Part shown: piece by piece, positions 3,753 through 28,962 of the stretch
Numbering within the stretch: the first letter of the stretch is position 1
Layout: every line of letters starts with the position of its first letter
DNA from: Methanomassiliicoccaceae archaeon UBA537
Lineage (GTDB): Archaea; Thermoplasmatota; Thermoplasmata; Methanomassiliicoccales; Methanomethylophilaceae
DNA length: 43,477 bases
Assembly (NCBI GenBank): GCA_002504495.1
Contig: DATC01000053.1
Coordinates: 1 to 43,477 of the forward strand
Direction: 5' to 3'
Position numbers and translations under genes: made by a program
The notes under the pieces: generated by a model
The model's database searches: none
The model's input: the letters and a program-made list of their open reading frames with translations, nothing else
Told to the model about the DNA's origin: nothing

Positions 3753-4761
3753 TCGGAATCGCAGAATCGTAGCAGTGATAGCACTGTTCTTTGTCGTGTG
3801 TATCGCAGGTCAGGCGATAGTCTACGGAGGGGATGCATATCGTTTCGATGCAGTTGCCGAATTCGGCGAGAACAATGTCATGGTGGATATCGATACGAAT
3901 TACGCTCTCGAATATTCGATTCTGTCGCTGAGATCCGATAGCACCTTTGGCGTCTCCTCCTATGCGATATGGTGCGATGAGGCGTATCCGGTGATAGGCG
4001 ATCTGGATGCCATTAGGGATTGCATCCATCGTCTTCAGCTGTATTTCACTAACAGCAACTCGTCTTTGGACATCATCACGACGGATGAGCTGACCCGTAT
4101 AGTCGCCAGCGGAGACACTTCCACAGCAGTCCTGTTCATAACGGGCACTTTGCCTTCATCGATTTATACAGGAAATCAGAGCGACCCCATATTCGATTGG
4201 CTTGCCGTCGGCGGAGTCATGTATTGGCTGAGCGAGAAGATCGGGCACAGCTATGCTGAGAAGGGCCTTCCTCACACGACGCAGGTGTACGGATCCGATA
4301 TCCTGTTTTTCGGAGCGACCGATGTGGTTCGCGCAGAGTCGAACGAGGTCTATACCCGCAATATAGAATCTGGAAGCGTGACATCGAAGTTGGGGATCTA
4401 CTATGGGGAGATCACGAACGGTATCGATTGCTCCAGATTGACGACACCGTATCTGGCATTGGATTGCAACGATGGAACCTACTCTGCTGCTACATTTATT
4501 CAATATCATGGAGGTACGGGTGCCGTATGCGTGTTCGGCGGACACATCAAGCATGAGGATGTTCCGACTTCCGTCATGGCATCGGTGACTCAGGCCGTAG
4601 TATCGGGAGTGTCATACGATACTATGATCTTGGATAATCGTACGGGATCTGGGGATGCTTCTTTCAATCTTCATTCTGACGACAGTTCGTACGTCTACGT
4701 CTATGTAGGCGAGATGAATACCATCTGGGCGAAATGTTTGAAGCGCGCATCGGCGATGTGA
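3745..4761 (+). CDS. N-terminally anchored extracellular protein, paralog of 14010..15056
   Basis: ATG 3745 after GAGGAGGT; one N-terminal TM. Shares GxxPSxxYTG..DP...W...GG..(Y/F)W and GxGxVCVxxG with 14010..15056. Confidence 0.75.
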   Translation: MDNRNRRIVAVIALFFVVCIAGQAIVYGGDAYRFDAVAEFGENNVMVDIDTNYALEYSILSLRSDSTFGVSSYAIWCDEAYPVIGDLDAIRDCIHRLQLYFTNSNSSLDIITTDELTRIVASGDTSTAVLFITGTLPSSIYTGNQSDPIFDWLAVGGVMYWLSEKIGHSYAEKGLPHTTQVYGSDILFFGATDVVRAESNEVYTRNIESGSVTSKLGIYYGEITNGIDCSRLTTPYLALDCNDGTYSAATFIQYHGGTGAVCVFGGHIKHEDVPTSVMASVTQAVVSGVSYDTMILDNRTGSGDASFNLHSDDSSYVYVYVGEMNTIWAKCLKRASAM

Positions 4762-15063: not shown

Positions 15064-16386
15064 ATGCGCATGAGCAGGTTCCTTGCGACGGTCATCGTGA
15101 CGGGGATCGTCCTCAGGCTGGCGATCGCCGCTCTGTTCTCGTTCCCGTACGATTTCCACAGCTGGGCTCTCATAATCTCCAATTTCGAGGCCGGGAACGG
15201 CCTGTACGACGTGGCCGGCTTCAACTACGCGCCCCCTTGGGGGTATGTGCTGGGGCTCTTCTCCCAATTCGCGGAGCTCGCGGGAGTCGATGTGCTGGGC
15301 GTGTTCTCAACGGAGTTCCTCTTCATGGAGGAGTCGTCCTGGTCGCCCACCGCCTTCGTGACGTCCGAGGCGTTCAACGTAGCATTCGAGTTCGTTCTCC
15401 TGGCGTTCGATCTGGTCATGTCGAGCATGCTGTACGGCATCGTCATGGAGAGGAGATCCGACGAGCGCATGGCGGAGAAGACCTTCGCGCTGTGGTTCCT
15501 CTGCCCCTTTGTTCTCGCCGTGACCTGCATAGGCGGCATGTTCGATGGACTCTCGGCCATCACCGCCGTCCTGAGCATGGCCCTGGCGGTGCGCAGGAGG
15601 TTCTTCCTGTCGGGATCCATGATCGCCTGCGCGGCCCTTTTGAAGCTGTTCCCGGCATTCCTCGTGTTCGTTCTCGTGGGATACGTCGTCTGCTCGTATC
15701 CGGATCGCAGACAGGCCCGCGCCCATATCCTGAAGGCGGTGGCCGGAGCCGTTCTGACCGTGGTCGTTCTCCTGCTTCCTCAGATCATGGACGGTACCCT
15801 TCCGTACTGCTTCTCGTTCATCTCCTCCCGTGCCGACGGAGGCATGGGGAACGGGTTCGGGATGCTGATGAGCATGGCGGTGATCGCGGTCTATCTGGCG
15901 ATACTGGTCCTGTCTTTCCTGATCGGGCGCTATATGGCGCGTTATAAGGGGGAGGACCGCGAGAGGAAGTTCTTCATGATGATGTCGCTCAATGTGGCCG
16001 TCCTGTTCATCTGTCCCGCCAATCCTCAGTACATACTGCTCCTCGCGCCGTTCCTGATCCTACTCATGGTCTTCGACGGGAATCGCGGCTACTCCAAAGC
16101 GTATATTCTCTTGTGCATAGGGGCGACGATGTCGGTCTGTACATCGATAGTCCCTTCCTTGGAATCGTTCTCCTTGTTCACCGGGTTCATGGACCCTGAT
16201 TGGCTCGTGTCGGCTATAGGGGTGTGGACGGCTGAGTGGCATGGAATCAGCCTTGCTTCCATACTCTGGGTTGGCGGCGTGATACAGTATATCGCCACCA
16301 CCCTGGTTATTTACACGTTCTGGAAGGGTGAGTTCGGAGGTGCCGTTCCATCCGTCCGTCATCGTGTACGGGCTGGAACGTCGTGA
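15064..16386 (+). CDS. GT-C fold membrane glycosyltransferase (PIG-M/GT87-like)
   Basis: PYDF, GNGLYDVAGFNYAPPWGY, WFLCP, GMFD, LKLFP and NPQY motifs; clear paralog of 12668..14023. Confidence 0.82.
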   Translation: MRMSRFLATVIVTGIVLRLAIAALFSFPYDFHSWALIISNFEAGNGLYDVAGFNYAPPWGYVLGLFSQFAELAGVDVLGVFSTEFLFMEESSWSPTAFVTSEAFNVAFEFVLLAFDLVMSSMLYGIVMERRSDERMAEKTFALWFLCPFVLAVTCIGGMFDGLSAITAVLSMALAVRRRFFLSGSMIACAALLKLFPAFLVFVLVGYVVCSYPDRRQARAHILKAVAGAVLTVVVLLLPQIMDGTLPYCFSFISSRADGGMGNGFGMLMSMAVIAVYLAILVLSFLIGRYMARYKGEDRERKFFMMMSLNVAVLFICPANPQYILLLAPFLILLMVFDGNRGYSKAYILLCIGATMSVCTSIVPSLESFSLFTGFMDPDWLVSAIGVWTAEWHGISLASILWVGGVIQYIATTLVIYTFWKGEFGGAVPSVRHRVRAGTS

Positions 16387-16512
16387 TAATCGTATCCGTT
16401 TACCTTTCGGTCGGTTGTTTTCTTCGTCGCTAACACGGCGACCGATATCTCGTATAGTATAGACGGAAAGGGGAGTCCTGGAGAGACCGACATCTCTCCA
16501 GGGTGATTTCAG

Positions 16513-16605
16513 ATGCCTGACCCATCTGAGAACAGGAGGATAAAAATCCTCGAGGCCTTGCTGGATGCGATCCGCATCCTCGCGAAGGTCTTCGACCTGC
16601 TGTAA
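16513..16605 (+). CDS. unannotated 30-aa amphipathic peptide MPDPSENRRIKILEALLDAIRILAKVFDLL (TisB-like candidate toxin)
   Basis: GGGTGA SD at 16501-16506, ATG 16513, TAA 16603-16605; flanked by hairpins; below the ORF-track length cutoff. Confidence 0.6.
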   Translation: MPDPSENRRIKILEALLDAIRILAKVFDLL

Positions 16606-16728
16606 GGCAGATCGGAGCTTGGCCCGGCTTGGGGCCTGCCCGGGTTGTTGACGCGACCCGGGTATTCTCACCCTCCATCTCCCGTGATACTCTGTACAAC
16701 TCGAGCGTATATAACGGGTCCTGTGCGT

Positions 16729-17388
16729 TCATTCGAGATATCGATCTTCGTGACAGAGACTCGCCTCGATCGCATAGTAGTACCGCGGGTCGCAGGTGCT
16801 GAAGTAGGAGTACCATGCATCGAGCGTCTCTGGTGAGAAGACCGACAGACGTTCGAGAATCAGCTTCGACCACAGGAGCCCTCCCGGAGAGCCTGCCGTT
16901 ATGACGCCGCCGTCGCTCACGGCGGGGACATCCTTATACATCGGGCCTCCGCGATAGCTTGGAGAGAAATGCTCGAGGAAGCCGGGGCCGTTGCTCGTGT
17001 GCAGGCGGCGATCCAGGATGCCGCGGTCCGCCAGCGCCACCGTGGATCCGCATATCGCGCACACCGTCCCGCCCTTGGAGACGATATCCTCTGCGGCATC
17101 CATGATGCGCGCTTTCCTGAGCTCGGGCCATGCCGACGATCCAGGGAGGATCAGGACGGCATTCTCATCTGTCTCTATGTCGGGAACCGCGATGTCCGGA
17201 ACCATGTTCATCCCGCCCATCGAGCGCCTGGCTTCCTTCGTATCGCCGACGGTCGAGAAGCGCACCTCAGGCGCGTCATCGCGGAAGAACCTCTTCGAAC
17301 ACAATTCCGGGGTCACATGACCGATCTCCCAGTCCGCCATCCCGTTCTGGATGTAGACGTACACATCGTACGAACTTCTGTCGCTCAT
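16729..17388 (-). CDS. DJ-1/PfpI family (class I glutamine amidotransferase-like) protein
   Basis: ADWEIG, LILPG...W, AICG (nucleophile Cys) and HTSN motifs; CGA four codons before the TGA. Confidence 0.88.
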   Translation of the reverse strand: MSDRSSYDVYVYIQNGMADWEIGHVTPELCSKRFFRDDAPEVRFSTVGDTKEARRSMGGMNMVPDIAVPDIETDENAVLILPGSSAWPELRKARIMDAAEDIVSKGGTVCAICGSTVALADRGILDRRLHTSNGPGFLEHFSPSYRGGPMYKDVPAVSDGGVITAGSPGGLLWSKLILERLSVFSPETLDAWYSYFSTCDPRYYYAIEASLCHEDRYLE

Positions 17389-17548
17389 GGAGTCGTCCAC
17401 TCGGCCTACGTATATGGATGTGACAGGGGGAGGTCGCCGAAAACGGGTGCGAGGAAGCGTTACGATCGTACCGGGGCTTCAACGGGGAAGGAGGTCCGGC
17501 GCGTTTCCGAAGAACAGATTATAAACGAGTAAGGATACGCCCGCCCCG

Positions 17549-28772: not shown

Positions 28773-28845
28773 GGGCCCGTGGGGTAGCTTGGTATCCTTC
28801 GTGCTTGGGGTGTACGTAACTCCGGTTCAAATCCGGACGGGCCCA
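28773..28845 (+). tRNA. tRNA-Pro(GGG)
   Basis: Acceptor stem GGGCCCG/CGGGCCC-A; anticodon arm CGTGC-TT-GGG-GT-GTACG; T arm TCCGG-TTCAAAT-CCGGA; no encoded CCA. Confidence 0.95.
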
Positions 28846-28962
28846 CTCATCCCTTGTCTTTCCGTCTCCATTGTAGTCGATGGTTTGCTCCATCATTGTT
28901 CTACCGGGTTTTCACCGACCTCCCTTCTTCGCCTTTAAGAACGTCTGCGCGTAGATGCCGTC

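Follow-up and report, generated by a model that had tools for sequence, protein, structure and literature searches.

The closest described counterparts of the locus considered here are bacterial toxin–antitoxin (TA) systems of type I. In par/Fst (RNA I–RNA II of pAD1), TxpA/RatA and BsrG/SR4 (Bacillus subtilis), convergent promoters give rise to a toxin mRNA and an antitoxin RNA that overlap at their 3' parts. These Firmicutes modules are small, self-contained and often multi-copy, and their toxins possess a plain hydrophobic transmembrane helix. In the TisB/IstR-1 system of Escherichia coli the toxin is encoded by a structured mRNA, tisB, that is inert in translation. The present analysis concerns a repeated module of about 285–290 nucleotides (nt), located at positions 16434–16716 (+ strand) of contig DATC01000053.1 from Methanomassiliicoccaceae archaeon UBA537, the whole analysed stretch of 43,477 nt being referred to as the window. 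Judged from its sequence, the module may represent a self-contained sense/antisense unit with the architecture of a type I TA locus, a reading whose chances are placed a little below even.

Type I systems are so far known only from three bacterial phyla, Proteobacteria, Firmicutes and Tenericutes, according to the accessible text of a 2025 paper (PMC12390103). No validated case came up in literature searches for type I systems of archaea, in agreement with that text and with what the initial annotation of the locus had stated. The nearest archaeal material comes from Methanosarcina mazei, where RNAs for small proteins have antisense partners, and the authors raise an analogy to Hok/Sok as a possibility (bioRxiv 10.1101/2025.10.28.685009, accessible text). 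As is predicted for the module, archaeal small open reading frames (ORFs) are there paired with antisense RNAs. In contrast to the module, the M. mazei pairs are not reported in that text as a multi-copy module, as having covarying structures or as toxic, and they belong to a different archaeal order, the comparison being one of descriptions only.

The module is repeated and conserved, with a covarying fold, a maintained ORF for an amphipathic peptide and two promoter-like boxes kept at a conserved spacing. It resembles the par/Fst, TxpA/RatA and BsrG/SR4 systems in its convergent layout, in which the predicted transcripts would overlap at the 3' end, and in being a small, self-contained, multi-copy unit. 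Unlike the module, those systems have bacterial promoters and terminators and a plain hydrophobic helix, and their families share no sequence similarity with it in Pfam. With hok/sok it shares a long-range 5'–3' pairing that closes the RNA and a buried translation start, but the predicted start of its + strand RNA may fall downstream of the 5' strand of the closing helix and there is no match to the Hok family.

The metagenome-assembled genome (MAG) that contains the window (G000; G-numbers denote genomes of its genus and L-numbers loci or records) is 81% complete, with 150 contigs and 1.61 Mb. It holds five full or near-full copies of the module and one that is cut by a contig end, as found by blastn against the genome itself and, with an identical list, by an nhmmer profile, which matches the window copy at 16434–16714 with 319 bits. 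The other copies are 84–87% identical to the window copy by blastn. With the interval 16387–16728 as query they align to query positions 46–331, and in the alignment conservation runs from just left of the left TATA-like box (~16434) to just right of the right box (~16716). A metagenome assembly contains copies with covariance-model scores identical to those of the MAG; it also has the cut copy in full and two additional copies, which may or may not belong to the same organism. The genes that flank the copies are unrelated housekeeping genes, among them ones encoding thioredoxin-reductase-like, ThiE, radical SAM, choloylglycine-hydrolase-like, SSB-like, AzlC, rubrerythrin, FecCD, CobN, ABC transporter and Topo VI B proteins, and because neighbours are unrelated at every copy examined the module is regarded as autonomous.

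The RNA fold is strongly supported. The 224-nt core of the window copy (16466–16689) folds as the + strand at -114.5 kcal/mol (z = -6.75), an energy that none of 200 shuffled sequences equals, and RNAalifold on a MAFFT alignment of eight copies gives a consensus of 69 pairs in ten helices, 16 of these pairs being compensated. When 16 copies are aligned to this model, a procedure that fits the alignment to the model and so biases it in the model's favour, 93.2% of 1055 pair cells are standard, as against 38–47% with the partners slid by one to three columns, and both sides change in 54 of the 69 pairs, values that none of 500 column shuffles attains. The covariation that the initial annotation had proposed to look for is present, with compensatory changes retained from copy to copy.

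The fold is closed by helix 1, in which GGGAG (16471–16475) pairs with CTCCC (16679–16683) and both sides change in four of five pairs. Helix 2, or P1 (16477–16502), is a perfect 10-bp stem, CCTGGAGAGA/TCTCTCCAGG around the loop CCGACA, which is also present in the minimum free energy fold; 96.3% of its cells are paired and four of its five consensus pairs change on both sides. A Shine–Dalgarno (SD)-like GGGTGA (16501–16506) overlaps P1 by 2 nt, is partly paired and ends 6 nt before the ATG. The latter lies within the start-codon hairpin (16507–16531), whose core pairs CAGATG (16510–16515) with CATCTG (16523–16528). Inside the ORF there follow hairpin P3, which is helix 4 (GAGGAT-AAAA-ATCCTC, 16536–16551, coding for RRIKIL), with 100% of its cells paired and a U-A to C-G exchange in the copies of G063, and then helices 5 and 6 (16552–16593), the inner hairpin of which joins GGATGCG (16563–16569) to CGCATCC (16573–16579). 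Helix 7 (16594–16613) holds the TAA stop codon (16603–16605) in its loop, has 98.3% of its cells paired and shows changes on both sides in six of eight pairs. The 3' untranslated part (16614–16683) contains GGAG (16614–16617) paired with CTCC (16673–16676), hairpins at 16621–16636 and 16639–16662, and a pyrimidine-rich tail, TATTCTCACCCTCCATCTCCC; in helices 8–10, 94–100% of cells are paired. The initial annotation had already named the ORF, the 10-bp stem, the stop hairpin, the two hairpins after it and both TATA-like boxes, and the sequence and the list of ORFs agree with it on all of these.

Compensation is also visible in alignments that were not fitted to the model. In the start-codon stem CAGAUG/CAUCUG corresponds to UAGAUG/CAUCUA in sister copies, the closing C-G having become U-A, and within the ORF GAUGCG/CGCAUC corresponds to GAUGUA/UACAUC. 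In this last instance the change of GCG/CGC to GUA/UAC in G033-type copies keeps the pairs and alters two residues, A19V and R21Y. Other examples are GACCUGC/GCAGGUC with GAGCUGC/GCAGCUC and GAGGAU/AUCCUC with GAGGAC/GUCCUC, and in the closing helix two copies within one genome differ as AGUC/GACU (G033a) and AGCC/GGCU (G033b). Type I mRNAs characteristically hide their start codon and ribosome-binding site, and here the AUG sits in a covarying stem with the SD-like tract at a helix junction, a prediction that is backed by the covariation.

Outside the consensus fold, GGGTGA (16501–16506) can pair with TCACCC (16668–16673) in three copies, and in sister copies the two become GGACGA and TCGTCC, a double compensation. 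This pairing fails in G033-type copies and could represent an alternative conformer. A search of Rfam 15 brought no family to its gathering score; the sole match was His_leader, the bacterial histidine operon leader, at 16378–16514 with 19.1 bits against a threshold of 49 (E = 3), and this was set aside as noise driven by the P1 hairpin.

The ORF at 16513–16605 on the + strand encodes a 30-residue peptide, MPDPSENRRIKILEALLDAIRILAKVFDLL, and is probably translated, to judge from the manner in which it is kept. It is intact in 23 of 27 distinct copies, and so is conserved as well as multi-copy, which supports the interpretation given in the initial annotation. The other four copies are visibly decayed, by a 5-nt deletion, an 8-nt duplication, a change of ATG to AAG and a 5' truncation, and decayed copies of this sort are usual for such families. 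Five ORF lengths occur (30, 31, 32, 33 and 34 amino acids, with 90, 93, 96, 99 and 102 nt from ATG to stop), all of them in frame. The ATG is invariant in the 5' strand of helix 3 while adjacent bases of the stem covary among subfamilies, the stop codon (TAA or TGA) is always found in the loop of helix 7, even in all the divergent copies, and a purine-rich SD-like tract of variable sequence lies 5–10 nt before the ATG in every subfamily. Among the five copies of G000 all four substitutions in the core of the ORF are at synonymous third positions. Within subfamilies the ratio of nonsynonymous to synonymous substitution rates (dN/dS) of the core is 0.22–0.46, and parsimony steps by codon position are 49/25/51, position 2 being the least variable. 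Minus-strand ORFs are not conserved among the copies: for an AUG close to where the antisense RNA is predicted to start, sister copies have AAG.

A protein profile search over 1.84 billion representatives recovered nine gene-caller clusters of such peptides in public data, none of which is named; two matches of 850–858 amino acids, each with several short matching stretches, were taken as spurious. The module as a whole is without a name in every library searched.

The peptides consist of a polar head of about ten residues, often P, S, E, R or K, followed by an amphipathic helix of 20–21 residues. The charged residues K11, E14, D18, R21, K25 and D28, which the initial annotation had assigned to a single helix face, do fall within a 100-degree arc of the helical wheel. 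The last 21 residues have an Eisenberg mean of 0.38, a Kyte–Doolittle mean of 1.45 and a hydrophobic moment of 0.55, compared with 0.23 +/- 0.11 for shuffled sequences. A moment of 0.5–0.6, above that of at least 98.5% of shuffles, is found in 19 of 21 distinct module peptides, and the amphipathic pattern is retained with different residues in three of the four most divergent copies. Type I toxins are typically encoded by ORFs of fewer than 60 codons and are hydrophobic or amphipathic, and the module encodes a peptide of that size and kind which is predicted to be membrane-directed.

TisB provides a physical parallel. Both peptides are about 30 residues long and would form one helix with a narrow charged stripe, and both contain LLDA, which is indeed present in TisB of E. 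coli K-12. Over the last 21 residues TisB and the module peptide have hydrophobicities of 0.44 and 0.38, moments of 0.48 and 0.55 and Kyte–Doolittle means of 1.58 and 1.45, respectively. In a protein-language-model atlas two TisB clusters come first (0.81) and a DinQ cluster is at rank 13 (0.77), scores which, by the tool's own figures, are to be treated as leads only. Unlike TisB, the module peptide has a polar head of about ten residues, carries more charges and is archaeal. The layouts differ as well, since IstR is upstream and divergent in the E. coli record, whereas the candidate antisense promoter of the module is convergent and overlaps the 3' end.

The predicted transcripts are drawn from the two TATA-like boxes, for which the 38 tRNA genes of G000 served as a calibration set. 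Most of these genes have an A/T-rich box, in many cases TTAWATA(C/G), which ends 23–24 nt before the mature 5' end in those promoters where the spacing was counted by hand. This suggests that tRNA transcripts of G000 are almost leaderless and provides a usable promoter rule for an uncultured lineage. The observation also concerns the tRNA-Pro gene of the window (28773–28846).

The right box, TTATATAC at 16714–16707 on the minus strand, faces into the module. It has the form nTTAWATA(C/G), as in GTTATATAC, CTTAAATAC, TTTAAATAC and similar minus-strand variants, and all 26 copies examined, even the most divergent, have it in this position. The initial annotation had pointed to it as a possible antisense promoter, and its conservation is joined by a shared form with G000 tRNA promoters such as TTATATAC itself and TTAAATAC. 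With a spacing of 21–24 nt from box to start, it predicts an antisense start at 16683–16686, exactly at the edge of the conserved fold (16683). The gene beyond the box is convergent at three of four G000 loci, which is why an outward reading of the box makes no sense. The predicted antisense RNA would cover 16541–16686 of the minus strand, with a candidate end at the T5 tract near 16541 or an end beyond 16466. A shorter antisense RNA, about 145 nt long, could terminate at that tract, the minus-strand counterpart of A5 (16542–16546) in the loop of P3; the copies of G063 have only T4 there, and G017 lacks it. The same T5/A5 tract was considered as an internal minus-strand promoter and rejected, as it is not kept in these copies.

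The left box, GTATAGTAT at 16453–16461 on the + strand (TTATAGTA in sister copies), could be the promoter from which the peptide mRNA is made; it is weaker than the right box. It overlaps the TATAGTATA element at 16454–16462, which starts 23 nt and ends 15 nt before the 10-bp stem of P1. Among 25 copies with a readable flank, 22 have the box in the corresponding position, as TTATAGTA, TTATTATAC or CTTATACCA, and the L033/L110 type lacks it. By the tRNA calibration it predicts a + start at about 16481–16484, at GGAGAG in the 5' arm of P1; the leader would then be 30 nt long and have a 6-bp hairpin at its 5' end. A single sigma-70-like match over the left box is irrelevant in an archaeon.

From these elements a mechanism can be proposed. 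The + strand would be transcribed into an mRNA of about 190–220 nt encoding a peptide of 30–34 residues, whose polar head and amphipathic helix of about 20 residues with a narrow charged stripe would make it physically akin to peptides that, like TisB, depolarise membranes. Such an mRNA would be almost fully paired, with its AUG in a stem, the SD-like tract at a junction and an anti-SD-like, CU-rich 3' tail paired with GGAG tracts, and on account of this near-complete pairing its translation should be intrinsically poor. On the opposite strand the tRNA-promoter-like TATA box, the stronger of the two and universally conserved, would drive an antisense RNA from the 3' edge of the module. This RNA would be fully complementary to the 3' untranslated region and the ORF, and its pairing might block translation or trigger decay of the mRNA. 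Both transcripts and their ends, translation of the ORF, toxicity of the peptide and rescue by the antisense RNA are predictions of the model. In its full form, namely a first archaeal type I TA family in which a TisB-like depolarising 30-residue peptide is checked by a fully overlapping antisense RNA from a tRNA-promoter-like box, multiplied to 6–8 copies per genome in some gut Methanomassiliicoccales, the proposal is tentative and somewhat more likely to be wrong than right. The type I reading fits because the module is repeated, occurs as tandem duplicates and in decayed copies, has a patchy distribution and is independent of its neighbours, features that are harder to reconcile with a small protein of housekeeping function, with a product that is non-coding RNA alone or with a miniature transposable element.

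A number of observations weigh against the type I reading. The selected structure may be borne by either strand: RNAalifold gives both equal energies (-143.7 and -147.2), and the minus strand of the window copy folds at -109.5 kcal/mol with z = -6.28, close to the figure for the + strand. The + strand has 74 G-U cells against 26 A-C cells, but this excess derives from few pairs and few independent events and was measured on the alignment fitted to the + strand. A fully overlapping sense/antisense pair would itself produce exactly this equal picture of the two strands. The predicted + start at about 16481–16484 leaves the 5' strand of the covarying helix 1 (16471–16475) and half of P1 outside the mRNA, so that either the + RNA starts elsewhere or upstream, or helix 1 is the closing helix of an extended antisense RNA reaching about 16466. 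Furthermore, neither the sequence nor a scan for bacterial-type promoters and terminators revealed a clear oligo-T terminator for the + RNA.

Other points bear on the peptide and on the ORF as a gene. None of 14 module peptides matches the TisB family PF13939 even at E <= 10, BLASTP gives no alignment between the module peptide and TisB, hhalign assigns the pair a probability of 3.8%, and the module peptides have no match in Pfam or NCBIfam. The module peptide is not a homologue of TisB, and the label TisB-like in the initial annotation is justified by physical chemistry only. Six charged residues in a 21-residue helix also make the peptide less hydrophobic than classical type I toxins. Between subfamilies dN/dS rises to 1.2–1.8, and the compensation of stems inside the ORF alters residues, from which it follows that RNA structure, beyond the peptide alone, is under selection; the mixed dN/dS values can be attributed to this added constraint on the ORF. 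All six frames have only 1–2 stops per 74 codons, and as GC-rich DNA gives few stops in every frame, openness of the frame is weak evidence for a gene. Neither can the hydrophobic moment tell frames apart, as it is mirrored in the complementary frame. The type I interpretation of the initial annotation is upheld in part: a conserved multi-copy ORF, a structured mRNA strand with a buried start and a conserved minus-strand box are all present, while the antisense RNA and the toxicity are predictions and the selected structure may belong to either strand.

As a separate observation, the minus strand of the core (16466–16689) has a predicted 13-bp helix in which the complement of the CU-rich tail (GGAGGGUGAGAAU) pairs with the sequence complementary to the arm and loop of P3 (AUUUUUAUCCUCC). 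The helix includes three G-U pairs, whose equivalents on the + strand are A-C mismatches.

Three other explanations have to be considered. The evidence for the ORF and for its amphipathic helix would equally suit a non-toxic small protein, either a regulator of a membrane protein or a peptide of the phenol-soluble modulin or delta-lysin kind that is exported as an antimicrobial or surfactant, made from a structured mRNA whose expression an antisense RNA perhaps tunes. In hydrophobicity and moment the helix matches surface-active peptides, and sense/antisense pairs do surround small protein genes of M. mazei, as far as the accessible text of the preprint cited above describes them. At least six diverged copies per genome, tandems, decayed copies and a patchy distribution among species nevertheless fit a selfish or addiction module better than a housekeeping regulator, and the peptides show no signal peptide and no linked transporter or partner gene, such that this explanation is considered rather unlikely. 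If instead a structured non-coding RNA were the product, from either strand and for instance as a long minus-strand RNA made from the strong promoter on the right, the ORF would be tolerated and not selected. The extensive covariation would then be explained directly, including that of the stems in the ORF whose compensation alters amino acids, as would the equal folding of the two strands, the dN/dS of at least 1 between subfamilies and the commonness of open frames in GC-rich DNA. Moreover, the one box that every copy possesses would drive the minus strand, with a predicted start that matches the edge of the closing helix. What speaks for a selected ORF is the fixed position of its ATG and in-frame stop within the structure, whichever of the five lengths it has, together with an SD-like tract before the ATG in every subfamily, an amphipathic pattern that survives the exchange of residues in divergent copies, and a dN/dS of 0.2–0.5 within subfamilies. 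No Rfam family is matched either, and a non-coding product is considered unlikely.

The third possibility is that the module is a miniature, non-autonomous transposable element, either like a miniature inverted-repeat transposable element or derived from IS200/IS605, whose hairpins and GGGAG/CTCCC inverted ends serve transposition at the level of DNA. A multi-copy unit of about 285 bp with sharp borders, intergenic sites and unrelated neighbours has the appearance of such an element, as do the short inverted ends and subterminal hairpins. Yet copies in one genome differ by 13–16% and keep their stems by compensation, which argues for selection on a folded strand and not for a recent burst. One occupied site is common to G033 and G036 and another to G033 and G080, and this sharing of sites between species implies that the copies have been vertically inherited for some time; in G033 and G036 the module lies within about 540 nt between conserved AzlC-like and rubrerythrin genes. 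Conservation extends past the inverted ends to both TATA-like boxes, no target-site duplication is visible in the flanks, and nhmmer over G000 gave no further partial matches beside a transposase-like gene. No clean empty site was found: where G080 (L134, contig C77) corresponds to the G033a locus (L031, contig C27) it has 451 nt of unrelated sequence, which indicates that the whole intergenic segment was replaced there. The hallmarks of such elements, that is, terminal inverted repeats at the very ends, target-site duplications, near-identical copies and empty sites, are thus lacking in these loci, and transposition is regarded as a very improbable explanation.

An archaeal family with a covarying structure, a maintained ORF and paired promoters would make the type I question directly testable on a defined unit of 290 bp. 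Should the type I reading hold, host-associated methanogens would possess a module for dormancy or addiction of a sort hitherto regarded as exclusively bacterial, and the family would show how such modules use archaeal promoters and translation signals. It would also bear on the action of small depolarising peptides on archaeal ether-lipid membranes and on the carriage of persistence-type modules by gut methanogens. Even without toxicity, the unit represents a new family, as yet without a name, that combines a structured RNA with a small protein and occurs in methanogens associated with humans and animals.

The distribution of the family was followed with a covariance model, R1, built from eight close copies. 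Among the 62 genomes of the genus it has matches in 11 at E <= 0.01 and in seven (G000, G061, G063, G017, G080, G036 and G033) at E below 1e-10, with one to six copies per carrier genome. The weak matches in G081, G003 and G077 were rejected on inspection, being without the ORF, the hairpins and the P3 motif, and a weak blastn match in G002 was rejected on inspection too; the fourth weak match to R1, in G085, covers only 20 nt and was discounted. In the rest of the order R1 has no match in any of 132 genomes, of which 45 represent further genera of the same family and 87 represent six other families, although with strict filters and a model of close copies divergent relatives could be missed. 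A degenerate pattern scan over one genome per prokaryote species gave 45 places, of which ten match R1, all in this genus. The other 35 genome-contig matches fail R1, as do six of 20 metagenome pattern matches, and none of five viral-contig matches fits it. Two pattern matches that were read proved to be chance, one an AT-rich terminator and the other a coding region in Methanolobus.

The carriers are gut-associated methanogenic archaea, in keeping with the archaeal host that the initial annotation had assumed. Their records include Candidatus Methanoprimaticola hominis Mx06 and Methanomassiliicoccaceae archaeon UBA113, and the NCBI taxonomy places the genus Candidatus Methanoprimaticola in the Methanomethylophilaceae, order Methanomassiliicoccales. 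In the window the module sits between convergent genes, with a GT87-like membrane protein gene (15064–16386, +) upstream and a DJ-1/PfpI gene (16729–17400, -) downstream, and synteny around this copy is not preserved within the genus. Two head-to-tail tandems were seen: in G000 the copies at 4475–4760 and 4997–5265 of contig C25 (locus L040) are about 520 nt apart, and in L110 those at 401–623 and 736–959 are 335 nt apart, one of them having AAG in place of ATG. The archaeal module is also carried by four 'cleanbin' isolate contigs (L086, L073, L100 and L094) titled Bacteroides ovatus, Ruminococcus sp. CAG:579 and Bifidobacteriaceae bacterium; as their model scores are identical to those of G036, G033 and G080, these record titles look mislabelled.

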